Of a stretch of 62,222 nt of DNA, positions 702-30,214 are shown in pieces. The stretch is taken from positions 1 to 62,222 of IMG/VR virus record IMGVR_UViG_3300042516_003753. One strand, written 5' to 3'. This DNA is from a virus. Lineage: Duplodnaviria > Caudoviricetes. A model generated the notes under the pieces. The model searched no databases. It saw nothing but the letters and a program-made list of their open reading frames with translations, and was not told the origin of the DNA. Positions within the stretch are counted from its first letter, which is position 1. Each line of letters starts with the position of its first letter. Made by a program: the position numbers and the translations under genes.

Positions 702-1781
702 TCAACCAATAGCAGGAGCGCGAAGAGCAACAGGAGTGTTAGTAGCAGCAGCAAGATCCAGAGGGAAATTGTGTGCATTACGCTCGTGCATTACCTCCAT
801 GCCCAGTCCAGCACGGTTGAGCACATCTGCCCAAGTGTTGATCACTTTACCTTGTCCATCAACGATGGACTGGTTGAAGTTGAAACCGTTGAGGTTGAAC
901 GCCATCGTAGATACGCCCAGGGCAGTAAACCAGATACCGACAACAGGCCAAGCAGCAAGGAAGAAGTGTAGCGAACGAGAGTTGTTGAACGAAGCATATT
1001 GGAAGATCAGGCGACCAAAGTAACCATGAGCAGCAACGATGTTATAAGTCTCTTCTTCTTGACCGAACTTGTAACCATAGTTCTGCGACTCTTGCTCGGT
1101 AGTTTCACGAACCAGCGAAGAAGTAACCAAAGAACCGTGCATAGCACTGAACAGAGAACCACCGAACACACCAGCAACGCCGAGCATGTGGAAGGGGTGC
1201 ATCAGGATGTTGTGCTCTGCCTGGAACACAAGCATGTAGTTAAAAGTACCAGAGATACCCAGGGGCATCGCGTCAGAGAAAGAACCTTGACCGAAAGGAT
1301 AGACCAGGAACACTGCGCTTGCGGCAGCAACAGGTGCAGAGTAAGCAACACAGATCCAAGGACGCATACCAAGGCGGTAAGAAAGTTCCCACTCACGTCC
1401 CATGTAGGCGTAGATGCCGATGAGGAAGTGGAACACTACCAGTTGGAAAGGTCCACCGTTGTAAAGCCACTCATCAAGAGAGGCAGCTTCCCAGATGGGG
1501 TAGAAGTGCAGTCCAATAGCATTGGACGAAGGGATAACAGCACCAGAGATGATGTTGTTTCCGTACATGAGAGAACCAGCAACAGGTTCACGGATGCCAT
1601 CAATGTCCACTGGGGGAGCACCGATGAATGCAATGATGAAGCAAGTTGTAGCAGCAAGCAGGCATGGGATCATCAGAACGCCGAACCAACCCACATAGAG
1701 GCGGTTATCGGTTGAAGTCACCCAGTTGCAAAACTGTTCCCAAGTATTCGATTGTCGTTGTTGTGAAATTGTAGCAGTCAT
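702..1781 (-). CDS. psbA: Photosystem II D1 protein (no intron)
   Basis: Full-length D1 sequence ([14 protein letters not shown] ... [13 protein letters not shown]). Confidence 0.99.
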
Positions 1782-20387: not shown

Positions 20388-20416
20388 AAAAAAAGAGAGG
20401 GTAGACCTCTCTTTTT
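20388..20416 (-). terminator. Intrinsic terminator
   Basis: AAAAAGAGAGG/CCTCTCTTTTT stem. Confidence 0.7.
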
Positions 20417-20449
20417 AAGTTTATTTATTTTTTATTCAGAAATATTAAA

Positions 20450-20506
20450 CTGAGCGGGAGAGAGTCCCATCCGCACCACTTGCCTTTTTAAGGGATGGCA
20501 AGAAAC
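20450..20506 (-). ncRNA. Structured RNA module C (manA-like cyanophage motif)
   Basis: CTTGCC/GGCAAG hairpin, then TGGTGCGGATGGGA..TCCCGC hairpin. Confidence 0.5.
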
Positions 20507-20716
20507 CTATTTTACAGCAGAAACAAAATTATTAATTATTTCTGCTTGCTTTAGAACTTGATTAAGAGTTGGAAAATTTGGATATTCTAGTTCAAGTTTT
20601 TCAACTTTATCATTCCATTCTCTAGCCGTATCATATTTTACGCAAAACTCATCATTTAACATAGTATATGCTTGTTTGAAAATTTCAAATCGAAGCTCAT
20701 AAGGTGTTTTTGACAT
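20507..20716 (-). CDS. Hypothetical protein
   Basis: MSKTPYELRFEIFKQA...; AGGAG RBS upstream. Confidence 0.75.
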   Translation of the reverse strand: MSKTPYELRFEIFKQAYTMLNDEFCVKYDTAREWNDKVEKLELEYPNFPTLNQVLKQAEIINNFVSAVK

Positions 20717-25277: not shown

Positions 25278-26744
25278 TCAGAACTTAAAGGTTGTCTGAA
25301 TTACCCCACCCCAGTTGGAGGAGTTGTCAGCAAGGCGCTGATTGTCGCTACCGTAGATGATAGCAGGAGTGACGCTGATGTTATCCGATACTTGATACTT
25401 GTAGAAGATTTCAAGAAGAGTGGACTTCTCAAGATTTTCACCAGTAGGTGCTTGACCGATAGCAACACCAGCAGAGTTACCATCAACAAACACATCATCC
25501 CAGGTCAGACCAGCAAACCATGACTGACTGTTAGTAGCAGCACTTTGAGTACCACTCACAGTGTTCCAACCATAACCACCAGAGATAGAAGGAACAATAC
25601 CTGATTTCTGAGGTTGCCAGTAAGCATTCAGTGCATAACCGTTAGAAGTTTGCCCAGGAACTAGAGCACCAGAAGCACCATTCAGACCGTTGTAGGTGCG
25701 AACACGAGTACCTTCAGTACCATAACGATAACCGAATGCAGCACCCCAGTTAGTACCACGATAACCGATTTGTGCAAGAGTATTCAGAGCACCAGTCTCA
25801 TCAAACACTCCAGTTTCACTATCATTACCACTTTGAGCAACATAGTTTACACCAGCAATAAGACCTTTCTTACCATACTGAGCACCGAAACCAGCACCAG
25901 TTGCTTTGTTGTAAACACCAGGAGCACCAGCAACAGCAAAGAAGTCAAGAATACCAGACTTATAAGCAGAAGGCATCCAAGCAATCTCAGTGTTACGAAC
26001 AGCAGCACCAGCAGTCAGAGTTGCTTTGTTATTAAAAGCAGGGAACTGATAGAACAGGCGGTCAATCACTACGTTGTTACCAACTTCACTGGTGGTGTTA
26101 TCTGCCTTATCCAGCTTGAACAGAGAAGAACTAGAACCGAAAGGATCACCACTAAAGTTAGATGAACGCAGACGAGTACGAAGCAGATCCTTACCAGTGA
26201 ACGAAGTGTCCAAATTCAGACGGAGATCGTAGTTAAATGCAGTATGAGTTACATCACCACCTTTGGTACGATAGTCATCAACGCCACCAAGAACAAAGTT
26301 TGCTTCACCACGGAGTTTGGTAGTAGTGGAGAACTGAGTTGCTTCCAGAGAAGCAACTTTAGTTTCCAGGTTTGCAACCTTACCTTGAATAACGGTAAGT
26401 TCATCACGGAACTCATTAGCAAGGCGCTTGAGTTCATCAGTTTGCTCAGTTACGCGATCAAGGCAAGCATTCAGAAGTGCTGCTGCCTCATAACGGGTCA
26501 TAGCACGTCCACCACCAAAGGTGCCGTTAGGATAACCAGCAACGCAACCATAACGCTCTACAAGGTTGCTGAGTGCTTGATACGCCCAATCACTAGGTTG
26601 CACATCAGAAAGTTGCGAAACGCTTGTAACCTGCTCTGTGGAGTATTGATTGACTGCTGACATATTAAGATCTGCAGCATTAGCAGCAACAGGAGCAACC
26701 ATTCCCAGAGCAACAGGTGCAAGCATCAGTTGTTTGAGTTTCAT
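25278..26744 (-). CDS. Cyanobacterial outer-membrane porin (Som/OprB-type, SLH domain)
   Basis: Signal peptide, SLH motif (DVQPSDWAYQAL...TRYEAAA), FSTTTKLRGE, C-terminal TTFKF. Confidence 0.95.
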   Translation of the reverse strand: MKLKQLMLAPVALGMVAPVAANAADLNMSAVNQYSTEQVTSVSQLSDVQPSDWAYQALSNLVERYGCVAGYPNGTFGGGRAMTRYEAAALLNACLDRVTEQTDELKRLANEFRDELTVIQGKVANLETKVASLEATQFSTTTKLRGEANFVLGGVDDYRTKGGDVTHTAFNYDLRLNLDTSFTGKDLLRTRLRSSNFSGDPFGSSSSLFKLDKADNTTSEVGNNVVIDRLFYQFPAFNNKATLTAGAAVRNTEIAWMPSAYKSGILDFFAVAGAPGVYNKATGAGFGAQYGKKGLIAGVNYVAQSGNDSETGVFDETGALNTLAQIGYRGTNWGAAFGYRYGTEGTRVRTYNGLNGASGALVPGQTSNGYALNAYWQPQKSGIVPSISGGYGWNTVSGTQSAATNSQSWFAGLTWDDVFVDGNSAGVAIGQAPTGENLEKSTLLEIFYKYQVSDNISVTPAIIYGSDNQRLADNSSNWGGVIQTTFKF

Positions 26745-26801
26745 AAAATTGTTTTATGTACTATAGGACAATATAAAGATTTACAACAAAGTAAATCTTC
26801 G

Positions 26802-26886
26802 TTATTTAGGAGATCTTAAGCAAACCTTAAGATTGGATAGTATCTTAGATCACTTTCAGTTTTTTGTCAACTAAGATTTGATTAAG
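26802..26886 (-). promoter_or_regulatory. Porin promoter with pho-box-like 11-bp repeats
   Basis: TTGACA-17-TAAGAT; CTTAATCA-AAT-CTTAGTTG at -35 and CTTAAGGT-TTG-CTTAAGAT downstream. Confidence 0.5.
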
Positions 26887-26887
26887 A

Positions 26888-26959
26888 AGCGGGGTATCGG
26901 AATCGAACCGACGACATCTAACTTGGAAGGATAGCGTTCTACCGCTGAACTAACCCCGC
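26888..26959 (-). tRNA. tRNA-Gly(TCC)
   Basis: Cloverleaf; loop CTTCCAA. Confidence 0.95.
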
Positions 26960-27008
26960 AAAGTGGGAGATTTCTCTCCCAGCACATTTCCTTCACACGG
27001 ATAGGAAA

Positions 27009-27037
27009 AGTATAAGACATAATTAATATTATGTCAA
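27009..27037 (-). promoter_or_regulatory. Sigma70-like promoter
   Basis: TTGACA-17-TATACT. Confidence 0.7.
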
Positions 27038-27109
27038 GCCCCCGACAAGACTTGAACTTGCGACAACCGCTTTACAAAAGCGGTGCTCTACCAGCTGAGC
27101 TACAAGGGC
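27037..27109 (-). tRNA. tRNA-Thr(TGT)
   Basis: Cloverleaf; loop TTTGTAA. Confidence 0.95.
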
Positions 27110-27110
27110 G

Positions 27111-27300
27111 AAAGGTAGTGAGTGTCCACCACCCGCAGGAGACACTTCCTGCGATTTTTACTGCATTAGAAGGCAGTGATAAGAGAAAACACCAAACCTT
27201 ATTCTTCCTGTCTTCAGGAACGCACCAAATGGGTTGGGAGACTCTAGAGATTTTACCTCCGAAGTTTGTCCAGCATTTTCAATTTGAAAGAACTTATGCC
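27111..27300 (-). ncRNA. Structured RNA with a wcaG-like core
   Basis: Two TTTGGTG motifs flanking a TTCCTG/CAGGAA hairpin; further ACTGC/GCAGT and CGCAGGA/TCCTGCG stems. Confidence 0.5.
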
Positions 27301-27307
27301 CTTCCAA

Positions 27308-27379
27308 CTCCACAACCTGGATTCGAACCAGGGACCAAATGATTAACAGTCATCTGCGCTACCGCTGCGCCATTGTGGA
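27308..27379 (-). tRNA. tRNA-Asn(GTT)
   Basis: Cloverleaf; loop CTGTTAA. Confidence 0.95.
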
Positions 27380-27387
27380 ATAAGTTG

Positions 27388-27505
27388 TCCCAGTATAAGG
27401 ATTCGAACCTTAAGTTTTTTAGTCACCTACCTCAGGAGATTAACTCCCTTCTGGAATGCGGGGGCACCACCCGACCACATGACCGTTACCTACGGCGTCA
27501 CTGGG
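27388..27505 (-). ncRNA. tRNA-like RNA with an expanded, anticodon-less core (118 nt)
   Basis: Acceptor CCCAGTG/TACTGGG, D-arm GCCG/CGGT, T-arm TAAGG-TTCGAAT-CCTTA; no 7-nt anticodon loop. Confidence 0.65.
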
Positions 27506-27510
27506 AAGAT

Positions 27511-27568
27511 ATAGATGGAGTAAGCGTGATATACCTCATAAGGATATAACAGAGGCTTACCCTCTATC
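27511..27568 (-). ncRNA. Structured leader RNA, possible pseudoknot
   Basis: AGAGG/CCTCT stem whose loop GTAAG can pair with downstream CTTAC. Confidence 0.45.
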
Positions 27569-27576
27569 AGTATTAT

Positions 27577-27605
27577 ATAGTAACAAACTCCGAAGAATTT
27601 GTCAA
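27577..27605 (-). promoter_or_regulatory. Sigma70-like promoter
   Basis: TTGACA-17-TACTAT. Confidence 0.65.
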
Positions 27606-27606
27606 G

Positions 27607-27678
27607 TACCCTGAGGAGGATTTGAACCACCGTCTTCTTCGTTCGTAGTGAAGCACTCTTCCACTGAGTTACCAGGGC
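27607..27678 (-). tRNA. tRNA-Arg(ACG)
   Basis: Cloverleaf; loop CTACGAA. Confidence 0.9.
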
Positions 27679-27681
27679 ATT

Positions 27682-27756
27682 TGGCGAAGGGTGAGGGATT
27701 TGAACCCCCATCGCAAGGTTTTGGAGACCTGCATCTTACCATTAGACTAACCCGAC
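27682..27756 (-). tRNA. tRNA-Trp(CCA) with mismatched acceptor stem
   Basis: Loop CTCCAAA, encoded CCA end; mismatches at 2:71 and 3:70. Confidence 0.8.
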
Positions 27757-27831
27757 TGGTTCTGAGGGTAGGATTCGAACCCACGAATGGCGGGACCAAA
27801 ACCCGCTGCCTTACCACTTGGCGACCTCAGA
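27757..27831 (-). tRNA. tRNA-Gln(TTG)
   Basis: Cloverleaf; loop TTTTGGT; encoded CCA. Confidence 0.95.
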
Positions 27832-27832
27832 A

Positions 27833-27906
27833 TGGGGTGACGTATGGGAATTGAACCCATGTAGGCGGTTCCACAAACCGCTGCCTTACCACTAGGCTAA
27901 CGTCAC
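27833..27906 (-). tRNA. tRNA-His(GTG)
   Basis: Cloverleaf; loop TTGTGGA; encoded CCA. Confidence 0.93.
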
Positions 27907-27907
27907 A

Positions 27908-27981
27908 AGGCAGTAGATAGATTTGAACTATCGTCCATAGGCATATGAGACCCGTGCTCTACCAGACTGAGCTATACTGCC
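27908..27981 (-). tRNA. tRNA-Met(CAT) (Ile2 not excluded)
   Basis: Cloverleaf; loop CTCATAT. Confidence 0.88.
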
Positions 27982-27985
27982 AAGG

Positions 27986-28075
27986 CGGAAGTGATAGGAT
28001 TTGAACCTATGGATGTCCATATAGGACATCGGGAGATTAGCAATCTCCTGCATTAAACCACTCTGCCACACTTCC
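27986..28075 (-). tRNA. tRNA-Ser(GCT)
   Basis: Long variable arm GATGTCC/GGACATC; loop TTGCTAA. Confidence 0.95.
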
Positions 28076-28093
28076 TAGTTTCCCTTACGGGAA

Positions 28094-28167
28094 TTGGAAT
28101 GGTCGGACTTGAACCGACGACCTCACGATTATCAGTCGTGCTCTCTAACCAACTGAGATACATTCCA
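28094..28167 (-). tRNA. tRNA-Ile(GAT)
   Basis: Cloverleaf; loop CTGATAA. Confidence 0.93.
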
Positions 28168-28171
28168 ATAA

Positions 28172-28304
28172 TGAATTGTTGTCTCTTCCCTTTACCTTAC
28201 CTCAATTCTCATCCCGAAGAGAGCGGGCAGAGGTAATTCCGATTTTTCACAACCATAGTCACTAGCTAGGTGACGGAAGTGTTTTTCATATCGGGCAACA
28301 ACCC
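28172..28304 (-). ncRNA. Unknown multibranch structured RNA (~130 nt)
   Basis: Stems GTTGT/ACAAC, CCGAT/ATCGG, GTCAC/GTGAC, TTACCTC/GAGGTAA and a TTCG tetraloop hairpin. Confidence 0.5.
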
Positions 28305-28307
28305 AAG

Positions 28308-28380
28308 CCGAAGAGGGTGGAATTGAACCACCGACACCAGGATCTTCAATCCCGTGCTCTACCATCTGAGCTACTCCCCG
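28308..28380 (-). tRNA. tRNA-Phe(GAA)
   Basis: Cloverleaf; loop TTGAAGA. Confidence 0.92.
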
Positions 28381-28382
28381 TT

Positions 28383-28464
28383 TGGTTTGGAAATTCAGGA
28401 ATTGAACCTGTCGGACAGTAGAGGCGATCAACTCTCCACTCTCCTGTGCTCCACACATTTCCAA
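28383..28464 (-). ncRNA. tRNA-like RNA with encoded CCA and non-canonical arms (82 nt)
   Basis: 8-bp acceptor TTGGAAAT/ATTTCCAA + ACCA; T-arm CAGG-TTCAATT-CCTG; extended central stem. Confidence 0.65.
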
Positions 28465-28465
28465 G

Positions 28466-28539
28466 TCGGAATGACAGGATTCGAACCTGCGACAACTGGT
28501 TCCCAAAACCAGAGCTCTACCAAACTGAGCTACATTCCG
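28466..28539 (-). tRNA. tRNA-Pro(TGG), second copy
   Basis: Cloverleaf; anticodon arm CTGGT-TTTGGGA-ACCAG. Confidence 0.95.
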
Positions 28540-28614
28540 TGGTATTCCTAACGGGATTCGAACCCGTGCTGCCACCTTGAAAGGGTGGTGACCTAACCGC
28601 TAGTCGATAGGAAC
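28540..28614 (-). tRNA. tRNA-Glu(TTC)
   Basis: Loop CTTTCAA; encoded CCA. Confidence 0.95.
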
Positions 28615-28620
28615 TTGATA

Positions 28621-28663
28621 TGCTACAACCGCCAAGGAGGGATTCTCCATAGGCAGCGTAGCA
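28621..28663 (-). other. Long GC-rich spacer hairpin
   Basis: TGCTAC/GTAGCA, GCTGCC/GGCGGT and GGAG/CTCC nested stems. Confidence 0.5.
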
Positions 28664-28664
28664 A

Positions 28665-28738
28665 CGACCCATACGGGATTTGAACCCGTGTTCTCCACCG
28701 TGACAGGGTGGCGTGATAGACCGCTACACTAATGGGTC
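28665..28738 (-). tRNA. tRNA-Asp(GTC)
   Basis: Cloverleaf; loop CTGTCAC. Confidence 0.95.
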
Positions 28739-28742
28739 AAGG

Positions 28743-28824
28743 TGGGAGGAGCAGGATTCGAACCTGCGAAGGCAGAGCCGTCTGATTTACAGTCAGATTC
28801 CTTTAACCACTCGGAAATCCTCCC
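28743..28824 (-). tRNA. tRNA-Tyr(GTA)
   Basis: Variable arm present; loop CTGTAAA. Confidence 0.95.
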
Positions 28825-28827
28825 AGA

Positions 28828-28861
28828 ACAGTTTATGTTTAATGACCGAACTGTGGCGGTC
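28828..28861 (-). ncRNA. Compact H-type pseudoknot
   Basis: S1 GACCG/CGGTC, S2 ACAGTT/AACTGT, A-rich linker. Confidence 0.5.
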
Positions 28862-28863
28862 TA

Positions 28864-28935
28864 TGGGTCTGGTGGGACTCGAACCCACAACTTCCAGGTT
28901 AAAAGCCCGTTACTCTACCATTGAGTTACAGACCC
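28864..28935 (-). tRNA. tRNA-Lys(TTT)
   Basis: Cloverleaf; loop CTTTTAA. Confidence 0.95.
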
Positions 28936-29053
28936 ATTAAAGGTTTAAATTTTCAAGGTGCGGTGTGGTCTCTCTCAACCACTTGATTAGAATACCACCA
29001 TTTGATCTCTTGGGGAGTGGATGGTGGACACTTAGGAAACTGTCACAGACAAC

Positions 29054-29092
29054 AAAAAAGGGGAGGAAACTTTTGGTTTCTCTCCCCTTTAT
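29054..29092 (-). terminator. Intrinsic terminator
   Basis: AAAGGGGAG/CTCCCCTTT stem plus T-run. Confidence 0.7.
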
Positions 29093-29112
29093 TTGCTTTT
29101 ATGGATTACATC

Positions 29113-29214
29113 TTACATATGTCTTTCCATATCCGCAAACAGGGGAGTACCCTCAATATGCCAATAGCGGCAATCGAGATTGCTAAACTGTTTTGTGGGC
29201 ATTTGGTAAGACAT
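29113..29214 (-). CDS. Small late-expressed peptide (33 aa)
   Basis: MSYQMPTKQFSNLDCRYWHIEGTPLFADMERHM, between a late promoter and a terminator. Confidence 0.5.
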   Translation of the reverse strand: MSYQMPTKQFSNLDCRYWHIEGTPLFADMERHM

Positions 29215-29234
29215 TGTTTCGACCTAAGTAGTTT

Positions 29235-29242
29235 TATTTATA
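29235..29242 (-). promoter_or_regulatory. T4-type late promoter
   Basis: TATAAATA. Confidence 0.65.
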
Positions 29243-29266
29243 AGACTTTTTCGTAAAAAAGTCAAG

Positions 29267-29339
29267 TGGAAAATAGGAGACTCGAACTCCTAACCTCCGC
29301 CTTGCAAAGGCGCTGCTCTACCAATTGAGCTAATTCCCC
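29267..29339 (-). tRNA. tRNA-Ala(TGC)
   Basis: G3:U70 pair; loop TTTGCAA. Confidence 0.95.
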
Positions 29340-29416
29340 TGGCGTCTCAGGTTGGATTCGAACCAACGGCCGACCGCTTAGAAGGCGGTTGCTCTATTCC
29401 ACTGAGCTACTGAGAC
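29340..29416 (-). tRNA. tRNA-Arg(TCT)
   Basis: Loop CTTCTAA; encoded CCA. Confidence 0.95.
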
Positions 29417-29443
29417 AATAAGATAATCATAAAGATTATCAAG

Positions 29444-29515
29444 TAGGACTGCAGGGAATTGAACCCCGTTCACACCGTTATAAGCAGTGGGCCTTAACCA
29501 ATAGGCGACAATCCC
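29444..29515 (-). tRNA. tRNA-Ile(TAT)
   Basis: Anticodon arm CACTG-CTTATAA-CGGTG. Confidence 0.9.
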
Positions 29516-29520
29516 ATAAC

Positions 29521-29592
29521 CTCCTGGTTTGTGCATCGCTGAGAGGCATAGGAGGGGCGGGTCTTACAGGAGGGTTGGAACCTCGCCTGCCC
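29521..29592 (-). ncRNA. GC-rich structured leader RNA of the tRNA operon
   Basis: GGGC/GCCC, GAGG-TTCCAAC-CCTC and CTCCT/AGGAG stems right after the promoter. Confidence 0.45.
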
Positions 29593-29600
29593 ATGAGAGT

Positions 29601-29629
29601 ATTATAGAGGATGGTAGCAACCTTGTCAA
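29601..29629 (-). promoter_or_regulatory. Consensus sigma70 promoter for the tRNA operon
   Basis: TTGACA-17-TATAAT. Confidence 0.85.
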
Positions 29630-29638
29630 GTCATTTTT

Positions 29639-30214
29639 TTACCTGAGTGGTGGACCAGCATACCATCCAACTAAAGATATTCTTTTTCCACTCTTAAGAG
29701 GTCTAACTCTATGAAGAGCATCAGATGGAAAAATAATAACATCACCAACGTCCATATCAACAGTTTGCATTTTGTTATTATCAACCATTATCTGAAATTG
29801 CCCTCCTTCAAAATCATTTTTAGAAGATAAAAGAAGAGTTATACTCAATTTTCTTATGAGTTTTTTGTCTTTACCAAAAGAAGATTCACTAGTGTCATAA
29901 TGCCAGGTATAATGAGATCCTTTTCCTTCATAAACAGTATACTGTATTCCATCAGCCCACTGCTCTAAATCATAATTAAAGTATTCATTATTTGCAGAAT
30001 GTATGAAATGACTCATCATTCCAGCAACCCAAGAATCAGTCTCTAACCAAATATTTCTAGATTTTCTAGTTTTTTCATCAATAAGTTGCGTTTTTTTACT
30101 ACCATAAACAGTAGAATCTTCAAATTCTTCACGTAAATATTGGTTTATTATTATTTCAGAAACTTCTTTCGGCAATCCAGAAGGAATATGATAATATCCT
30201 AAATTATTAGCCAT
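29639..30214 (-). CDS. 2OG-Fe(II) oxygenase
   Basis: WHYD, RKLS, HRV and RISLVGW motifs. Confidence 0.9.
   Translation of the reverse strand: MANNLGYYHIPSGLPKEVSEIIINQYLREEFEDSTVYGSKKTQLIDEKTRKSRNIWLETDSWVAGMMSHFIHSANNEYFNYDLEQWADGIQYTVYEGKGSHYTWHYDTSESSFGKDKKLIRKLSITLLLSSKNDFEGGQFQIMVDNNKMQTVDMDVGDVIIFPSDALHRVRPLKSGKRISLVGWYAGPPLR

Follow-up and report, generated by a model that had tools for sequence, protein, structure and literature searches.

The virus record IMGVR_UViG_3300042516_003753 of IMG/VR (Duplodnaviria; Caudoviricetes) was analysed over its full 62,222 nt, hereafter the window, a fragment estimated to be 29% complete. Positions 26962–29600 hold the tRNA gene array of a freshwater T4-like cyanophage, with structured RNAs interleaved between the tRNA genes. 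Two of these RNAs, an abiF RNA and a hairpin that we refer to as the lead RNA, lie just downstream of promoters and have relatives in picocyanobacteria, where they precede genes for Abi_2-domain (PF07751) proteins. The closest cultured relatives of the phage are the T4-like cyanophages S-PM2, S-CREM1 and S-SRM01, each of which matches only parts of the region, and lake-water metagenomes contain near-identical DNA.

Every gene of the region is on the minus strand. ARAGORN gives 18 tRNAs between 27037 and 29515, the number counted in the original prediction, and a 19th, tRNA-Gly at 26888–26959, lies just outside the region. tRNA genes take up 1,368 of the 2,639 bases, the remainder being spacers of 0–329 nt. 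The structured elements in these spacers are, as had been proposed, rich in G+C (0.41–0.56, against 0.353 for the whole window). When each spacer was compared by BLAST with loci taken from IMG/VR, nearly all had relatives, the exceptions being the two shortest gaps, of 26 and 17 nt. Mapping the tRNAs and spacers revealed a gene order common to ~30 related contigs, in which single elements are present, absent or moved. The original prediction of a set of non-tRNA RNAs agrees with these data in that spacers are conserved and covary in relatives, and only one matches an Rfam family. That one is the abiF RNA (RF03085), the only non-tRNA match of Rfam in the region; a scan of positions 26700–29750 at E ≤ 10 otherwise yielded only tRNAs and chance-level matches, leaving the other spacers unmatched.

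The array comprises more than one operon, being divided into units by several early-type promoters and a single internal terminator; promoters were located by scanning the minus strand for the consensus TTGACA-17-TATAAT, each site being scored out of 12. The array and the features of its two main leaders are as follows.

26888–29515, minus strand: tRNA array of 19 genes, on which ARAGORN and Rfam RF00005 agree, the tRNA ends bounding the spacer RNAs
29601–29629, minus strand: promoter P1 (TTGACA, 17 nt, TATAAT), 12/12, sigma-70-type and early, serving the first tRNA unit
29559–29592, minus strand: abiFup hairpin, with outer and inner stems of 3 and 6 bp, an invariant loop on the inner stem and a 3' bulge
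29519–29555, minus strand: orphan abiF RNA (RF03085), 45 bits against a gathering score of 37, full model 1–37
27577–27605, minus strand: promoter P3 (TTGACA, 17 nt, TACTAT), 10/12, directly after tRNA-Arg(acg)
27514–27568, minus strand: lead RNA, a ~55-nt hairpin with an internal loop, covarying in alignment A5, with no Rfam match

The leader RNAs and their viral relatives

The best promoter match in the region, P1, stands upstream of the abiF leader, and its −10 box and downstream region are conserved in 37 aligned sequences. The abiF RNA that follows resembles its family in matching the full model above the gathering score and in keeping the conserved loop and the 3' bulge; its outer stem is compensated and all its pairs are standard. 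It differs from the family in its surroundings and composition. No Abi_2 gene lies directly downstream; instead, the RNA ends 3 nt before the first tRNA, tRNA-Ile(tat). An additional hairpin, abiFup, precedes it, and the phage copy is A+T-adapted, with a shorter apical loop than the RNAs of the hosts themselves.

To assess structure, five elements were each aligned, folded with RNAalifold and scored for paired positions, with two controls, shuffles and the sliding of pairing partners along the alignment. The covariation score of each element was reached by none of 500 shuffles, and pairing fell to 25–60% when partners were slid by 1–3 columns. The slid controls and the double changes are the stronger argument, because related sequences can beat shuffles without any structure. 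Across 37 sequences, the abiF leader comprises 20 pairs, with 98.4% of cells paired and double changes in nine pairs. Helices 1 and 2 of abiFup have double changes in six of nine pairs, so that this hairpin covaries on its own (alignment A4, 37 sequences). In the same alignment, three relatives (L125, L134 and L138) carry several changes in the otherwise invariant apical loop of the abiF RNA. In another close relative (L130:686–803), a different short hairpin leader replaces both abiFup and the abiF RNA, a natural presence/absence variant.

Scanning IMG/VR for the conserved abiF core yielded at least 120 loci. A tRNA starts 1–7 nt after the RNA in 48 of the 120 listed, 36 of these being tRNA-Arg(tct), and in S-CREM1 and S-SRM01 the abiF RNA likewise abuts a tRNA. 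We then searched for the Abi_2 toxin gene. None is present in the 62-kb window, in the complete genomes of S-SRM01 and S-CREM1 or in three further viral records, one of them 100% complete. Among the 120 listed loci, 50 records were searched (30 not tRNA-linked and 20 tRNA-linked); Abi_2 was found in one, and in none of the six that were at least 90% complete. Most viral abiF RNAs thus lack an accompanying toxin gene, with the caveat that many of the records are fragmentary. A group of ~20 IMG/VR loci (for example L011, L020, L025 and L041), with a G+C content of ~0.4, retains the abiF core with an unrecognisable outer stem and no adjacent tRNA; five bounded records of this group gave no Abi_2 in a search whose coverage was possibly incomplete.

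The second leader, the lead RNA, is the most widespread spacer element, with 52 BLAST copies in the fetched loci, 30 of which end 0–4 nt before a tRNA. Over 23 distinct sequences it forms 21 pairs, with 99.0% of cells paired and eight pairs showing double changes. It also occurs in the cultured phages S-RIM8, S-RIM32, S-SZBM1, S-CREM1 and S-SRM01. Its promoter, P3, lies 26 nt from tRNA-Arg(acg), a distance repeated in many relatives. Where relatives have no −35 box, the −10-like box of the lead RNA is immediately preceded by a short hairpin. Together with a short leader at 26960–27002, described below, the leaders at 29519–29592 and 27514–27568 account for the promoter-proximal leaders that had been proposed from the sequence alone.

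AbiF systems of the hosts

According to the accessible parts of two reviews, the abiF RNA is the antitoxin of AbiF in a toxin–antitoxin system of type III, and AbiF is a HEPN RNase that acts in abortive infection, processes its own RNA and has been proposed as an ancestor of Cas13 (PMC12737573; PMC13064643). To look for such systems in potential hosts, we reached picocyanobacterial genomes via the phage psbA protein. Abi_2 scored above its curated cut-off in 18 of 401 sampled genomes, from the family of Synechococcus WH7803. An abiF-like RNA lies upstream of the gene in 14 of the 18, a lead-type RNA in three, and neither in one, in which the gene is broken.

The abiF-like RNAs of the hosts are variants of the Rfam family. 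Ten of the 12 best host loci have a 29–34-bit match to RF03085 on the same strand, at a constant position ~119 nt upstream of the domain, and the same upstream match is found in four of five further Abi_2 loci. At the gathering score, RF03085 matches none of the 12 best host loci and none of 151 host genomes. Standard annotation therefore misses the host variant, because its scores lie below the gathering score of 37. Loci carrying this variant, with its 15-nt apical loop, are L235–L244, L252–L254 and L256. In one host locus (G058), a promoter-like site is followed by the RNA and then by the toxin open reading frame (ORF); no counterpart of abiFup was seen in this locus, the one inspected. The short invariant motifs of the other phage spacers gave only scattered chance matches across all host Abi_2 loci.

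The lead RNA was connected to the hosts through R1, a covariance model built from phage lead copies alone and run on 151 host genomes. R1 matches three of them, at 55.7–57.6 bits (E about 1e-9). Each of the three lies on the same strand as its genome's Abi_2 domain and ~137 nt upstream of it, and they are exactly the three intact host Abi_2 loci without an abiF-like RNA. The unpaired bases of the RNA are identical in phage and host, while both stems are rebuilt from A-U-rich to G-C-rich with full compensation; with the host rows included, 10 of the 21 pairs show double changes. At one host locus (L249), the lead-type RNA is followed by GGGAG and, about 22 nt later, by a start codon. The adjoining protein is an Abi_2 member (E 6.7e-48) with an R-x4-H motif. 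Along almost all of its length it matches the solved AbiF structure 8VZ6 (E 3.2e-26), and it is only 26% identical to the abiF-type host protein. The lead RNA is thus a member of an RNA family absent from Rfam that lies directly upstream of Abi_2 genes in picocyanobacteria, and both RNA classes that accompany the toxin in this host family are carried by the phage array. This second class, which pairs with a distinct AbiF subfamily, was uncovered by taking a model made from phage RNAs only into host genomes.

A proposed counter-defence role for the leaders and its rivals

We regard it as moderately probable, from homology and gene order, that the two promoter-proximal leaders are orphan RNA antitoxin mimics directed against host AbiF, made early and released by tRNA processing. 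Early transcription would yield each of these RNAs as a 5' leader ahead of a tRNA or tRNA-like gene. The transcript would be processed by RNase P or RNase Z, and the RNase P cut at the 5' end of the downstream tRNA would give the leader RNA a defined 3' end, replacing AbiF's processing of its own RNA. The freed RNA would then bind the host AbiF-type toxin. When host transcription stops and the supply of host antitoxin RNA ends with it, the phage RNA would maintain inhibition and block abortive infection. It is probable that the array also serves to deliver anti-defence RNAs, because two of its spacer RNAs copy those that would silence the AbiF-type toxins of its hosts. The original prediction of a tRNA-punctuated anti-defence cassette thereby gains homology for two elements, one through the Rfam abiF family and one through the lead family upstream of host Abi_2 genes. 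It gains none for the two tRNA-shaped RNAs and the 138-nt RNA described below, for which the host-genome searches found no counterparts.

Several observations weigh against the leaders acting in this way. The abiF element is dispensable, since the close relative L130 keeps the promoter and tRNA-Ile(tat) without the abiF motif. Linkage to a tRNA is not required, because 69 of the 120 listed viral abiF loci lack an adjacent tRNA (three more are at a contig end). AbiF is rare in the sampled hosts (18 of 401 genomes) and the phage RNAs are common. The apical loop measures 15 nt in the host abiF-type RNAs and 7 nt in the phage copy; this longer loop, together with scores below gathering, makes cross-neutralisation uncertain for the abiF class. 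For the lead class, the host examples number three, two of them identical in RNA sequence, and the lead model found nothing below E 1.9 at 13 loci of more distant cyanobacterial Abi_2 homologues (28–37% identity). The host lead-type RNA is itself a putative antitoxin, by gene order and protein family. As the window represents 29% of the genome, a toxin gene elsewhere in this phage is possible. Finally, phage copies may already have been treated in the primary AbiF paper (Zilberzwige-Tal 2025).

The rival that survives best, although we consider it unlikely, is a purely cis effect of leaders and spacers on the tRNA operons, through 5'-end protection, timing of RNase P or RNase E cleavage, insulation of neighbouring tRNAs from misfolding or transcription attenuation, with no role against host defence. 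Each element adjoins a tRNA or occupies a tRNA slot, L130 has another hairpin before the same tRNA in place of the abiF leader, several spacers are plain hairpins without covariation information (such as that between tRNA-Asp and tRNA-Glu), and promoters and a terminator account for part of the conservation. What such a role does not explain is that the host homologues of the two leaders precede toxin genes and not tRNAs, that the 69 viral abiF RNAs noted above have no neighbouring tRNA and that the 138-nt RNA moves among tRNA slots. Moreover, the invariance of the unpaired bases across phage and host suggests a specific ligand.

Even less probable is that the abiF and lead RNAs are neutral leftovers of captured host toxin–antitoxin loci whose toxin gene was lost. 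The sequences flanking the abiF copy in S-CREM1 are similar to those around bacterial and host copies, as capture from a cellular locus would predict, and the absence of the element from L130 fits as well. Yet at least 37 distinct sequences retain the abiF leader and at least 23 the lead RNA, with 98–99% of cells paired and many double changes. They hold a fixed position after a promoter and before a tRNA, and their composition is phage-adapted, with a G+C content of 0.25–0.37 against 0.57 in the hosts. We give very little weight to the last rival, in which the RNAs would partner an AbiF-like toxin of the phage itself, encoded outside the window and used for addiction or to exclude superinfection: the 29% completeness of the window, the one Abi_2 among the 50 viral records searched and the existence of complete prophage-encoded AbiF systems, described in the accessible part of 10.1101/2025.04.15.648962, would allow it, but complete S-SRM01 and S-CREM1 carry both RNAs without Abi_2, and none of the six near-complete records searched has the gene.

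A role for the leaders as antitoxin mimics would have a parallel in pseudo-ToxI of Pectobacterium phage phiTE, an RNA that mimics the ToxI antitoxin and so escapes ToxIN (PMC3475682, accessible part). In both cases a phage RNA copies the RNA antitoxin of a type III abortive-infection system, as proposed here for AbiF. In pseudo-ToxI, the toxin is ToxN and the RNA a tandem repeat that reportedly expanded in laboratory escape mutants. The present RNAs differ in that the toxin would be the HEPN protein AbiF and in being single hairpins, naturally fixed in many environmental phages, with two classes in one array and tied to tRNA genes.

A cellular parallel for the proposed release is the 3'ETS-leuZ sponge of E. 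coli, a small RNA that is excised from a tRNA precursor and acts in trans by base-pairing. It likewise derives from a tRNA precursor, but is a cellular base-pairing sponge, whereas toxin binding is proposed here.

The tRNA cluster of S-CREM1 has been annotated as wcaG, tRNA-Met, tRNA-Leu, manA, tRNA-Asn, abiF and tRNA-Gly (PMC9964418). It shows the same interleaving of tRNAs and non-coding RNAs, with the abiF RNA 4 nt before tRNA-Gly; in its accessible form, the annotation does not include the lead RNA, the tRNA-shaped RNAs or the 138-nt RNA (PMC9964418). The accessible parts of that paper and of a 2025 review give the abiF RNA no function and no link to the AbiF toxin, to host genomes or to tRNA processing (PMC9964418; PMC12197685).

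Phage mimicry of an RNA antitoxin is therefore already known, and an abiF small RNA had been noted in one cyanophage. New are the link to host AbiF, the orphan state of the abiF RNA across many viral records and its fixed tRNA junction. The second Abi_2-associated RNA family common to hosts and phages is also new, as are three further covarying RNAs in tRNA slots. The literature searched, whose scope did not extend to the primary AbiF paper or to any supplements, held no proposal of phage-borne abiF-type RNAs as counter-defence, and natural phage escape from AbiF was not described in the papers searched. Orphan antitoxin RNAs on phages point to such an escape route, both natural and widespread. 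Phage tRNA arrays would gain a second job beyond codon supply, as processing scaffolds that release small RNAs. Searching host genomes with models of phage tRNA-array spacers suggests itself as a general route to new toxin–antitoxin RNAs. Because the cultured phages S-SRM01 and S-CREM1 carry both RNAs, the idea is directly testable in phage–host pairs.

Other spacer RNAs and transcription units

The remaining spacers contain the following RNA elements.

27388–27505, minus strand: tRNA-shaped RNA 1, 118 nt; 30 pairs in 12 sequences, 98.3% of cells paired, 9 double changes
28381–28464, minus strand: tRNA-shaped RNA 2; 20 pairs in 10 sequences (6 distinct), 100% of cells paired, 5 double changes
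28169–28306, minus strand: 138-nt multi-stem RNA; 35 pairs in 9 sequences (7 distinct), 97.1% of cells paired, 6 double changes
28937–29045, minus strand: leader before tRNA-Lys, with two conserved plain hairpins
28615–28663, minus strand: hairpin between tRNA-Asp and tRNA-Glu, fold z-score −5.0; 5 sequences
27110–27306, minus strand: spacer between tRNA-Asn and tRNA-Thr, 88.7% identical to S-SRM01

Two tRNA mimics had been proposed near these positions, and tRNA-like arms with covarying pairs (0 of 500 shuffles) were indeed found at 27388–27505 and 28381–28464. tRNA-shaped RNA 1 begins 6 nt beyond the lead RNA. Its acceptor stem has 7 bp, its D arm contains GG and its 5-bp T arm is closed by the canonical loop TTCGAAT; where a tRNA would have its anticodon arm, it has two hairpins connected by invariant single strands. 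tRNA-shaped RNA 2 follows tRNA-Pro and precedes tRNA-Phe with no gap (0 nt) on either side. It combines an acceptor stem of 8 bp with a T stem of 4 bp (T loop TTCAATT) and a tiny D hairpin with a GGA loop, and a single long arm, whose 10-nt apex is invariant, takes the place of the anticodon arm. Acceptor and T arm sum to 12 bp in both RNAs (7+5 and 8+4), the acceptor pairs covary, and both RNAs fill tRNA slots, 0–8 nt from their neighbours. Neither receives an ARAGORN call or an RF00005 match at E ≤ 10, and neither has a 7-nt anticodon loop.

These features bear on the alternative that the tRNA-shaped RNAs represent no distinct RNA class but either tRNA pseudogenes in decay or real, if unusual, tRNAs. 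Their occupation of tRNA slots, the retained acceptor stem, T arm and D-like GG loop, and the other odd tRNAs that ARAGORN reports in relatives ('tRNA-???', His(atg)) would all be expected from it. The alternative is nonetheless improbable: the parts most conserved are those unlike a tRNA (such as RNA 2's apical loop and the strands joining the hairpins of RNA 1), covariation is seen in the new helices, and both the 7-nt anticodon loop and the RF00005 match are missing. Among the relatives, ARAGORN calls His(atg) in L125, L127, L154, L036, L039 and L061 and 'tRNA-???' in L032, L065 and L096. One unusual tRNA, with a two-base anticodon call, lies directly after an abiF RNA, and in L125 and L127 His(atg) adjoins tRNA-shaped RNA 1.

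A multibranch RNA of ~130 nt had also been predicted, and corresponds to the 138-nt RNA at 28169–28306, in which six of 35 pairs have double changes. It occupies the slot between tRNA-Phe and tRNA-Ile(gat) here, and that between tRNA-Asp and tRNA-Glu in other contigs; because it changes slots, it is an independent gene. The two tRNA-shaped RNAs, the 138-nt RNA and several hairpins are separate RNA genes in tRNA slots, and are probably released in the way proposed for the leaders. Searches for their relatives beyond IMG/VR gave little. BLAST of tRNA-shaped RNA 2 against cultured phages returned nothing, its relatives coming only from IMG/VR pattern scans. The models of tRNA-shaped RNA 2 and of the 138-nt RNA, both run without a positive control, each matched none of 151 host genomes. 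Allowing up to two mismatches, the invariant-strand pattern of tRNA-shaped RNA 1 matched 97 of 251 host genomes, none of them exactly and about as many as its reversed-pattern control did, so that these matches were treated as chance. As a guess, made with low confidence, the two tRNA-shaped RNAs could be decoys for tRNA-binding host factors. More broadly, and only as a tentative possibility, the whole array may be a modular RNA counter-defence cassette in which each structured spacer is a decoy or antitoxin against a different RNA-binding or tRNA-targeting host defence. Such a cassette would take in both tRNA-shaped RNAs, the mobile 138-nt RNA and abiFup, with the tRNA-processing enzymes of the host as its release machinery. 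If this is true, orphan antitoxin RNAs would constitute a general, overlooked class of phage anti-defence genes, 49 of the 50 searched records among the listed abiF loci having no toxin.

The T4 tRNA cluster likewise contains two small stable non-tRNA RNAs, rnaC and rnaD (139 and 119 nt; also called species 1 and 2), which we take to be processed by RNase P. They lie behind tRNA-Arg (rnaD by 1 nt and rnaC by 6 nt), a layout like that of the tRNA-shaped RNAs here. rnaC (L248:1409–1547), with a fold z-score of −4.6, terminates in a canonical T loop on a stem of 5 bp; rnaD has no significant fold (z-score −0.8). Homology of tRNA-shaped RNA 1 to rnaC and rnaD was considered and rejected, the 54% mean column identity in a MAFFT alignment being confined to the T-loop region. 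The function of rnaC and rnaD is still unknown, according to the accessible part of PMC9697503, and the spacer RNAs described here offer a lead on the old question of what non-tRNA RNAs do in T4-type tRNA clusters.

Two of the other spacers differ from what had been proposed. An H-type pseudoknot was predicted near 28990–29030, within the leader before tRNA-Lys; its second stem is not conserved in 21 aligned sequences, in which two separate hairpins are. The hairpin between tRNA-Asp and tRNA-Glu is conserved, and with no double changes in its 16 pairs its covariation is uninformative. In the spacer between tRNA-Asn and tRNA-Thr, the part next to tRNA-Thr (27110–27199) forms three hairpins, with double changes in seven of 23 pairs (seven sequences), and the part next to tRNA-Asn (27200–27306) is more weakly structured, with double changes in two of 22 pairs (five sequences). 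The second departure concerns the 220 nt at 29046–29265, which hold not an RNA element but a promoter, a conserved ORF of 32–34 amino acids and a terminator. This and the remaining transcription signals are listed below.

29046–29265, minus strand: micro-gene unit, with a promoter (TTGACT, 17 nt, TATAAAT), a 33-amino-acid ORF at 29113–29214 and an intrinsic terminator at ~29046–29089
26960–27037, minus strand: promoter P4 (TTGACA, 17 nt, TATACT; 27037–27009), 11/12, and a short leader before tRNA-Gly
26870–26842, minus strand: further promoter-like site, 10/12

Of the 329 nt that separate tRNA-Ala from tRNA-Lys, the micro-gene unit occupies the first 220. Twenty of 21 sequences, that of S-PM2 among them, retain its ORF with indels that preserve the frame, and the hairpin and T-run of its strong terminator are conserved. 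Its −10 box presumably resembles a T4 late promoter. The only annotation of the homologous stretch in S-PM2 is a hypothetical ORF on the opposite strand, S-PM2d160. Homologues of P4 and its leader are present in nine loci. The strongest 'hairpin' of this Thr–Gly spacer was discarded as an RNA element, as it is promoter DNA between the −35 and −10 boxes. The total number of promoter-like sites, six, is not above chance (4.8 ± 1.9 in shuffles); four sites score 10–12 out of 12. An inverted repeat spans the −35 box and spacer of early-type promoters at 27583–27605, 27015–27037 and 29243–29265 (minus strand), and could be an operator or a switch between promoter classes.

RNA-library data from lake metatranscriptomes (three freshwater studies) consist of contigs, with DNA carry-over possible. 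These contigs cover both leaders, both tRNA-shaped RNAs and the micro-gene transcript, and some of their ends fall near predicted ends. Over the micro-gene they run from 29022/29050 to 29219/29229 in three runs, and over the lead RNA from 27507 to 27568. tRNA-shaped RNA 1 is covered by contigs at 27352–27506 and 27179–27506, and tRNA-shaped RNA 2 by contigs at 28377–28464 and 28299–28449. We treat this cover as a weak hint of transcription, because assembled contigs carry no transcript ends, strand or level and may derive from DNA; by the same token, we draw nothing from parts that lack cover.

A wcaG-like RNA had also been placed among the spacers. RF01761 has no match in 26700–29750 at E ≤ 10, and its only match in the window lies outside the region, at 20413–20510 on the minus strand (61.7 bits, Rfam). 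The gene that follows the array starts at ~26744 on the minus strand, and the S-SRM01 gene at the same place (L003:1932–3001) is annotated as a porin. Elsewhere in the window, a PhotoRC-II RNA (54.8 bits) at 1821–1909 on the minus strand lies upstream of psbA (702–1781, minus strand).

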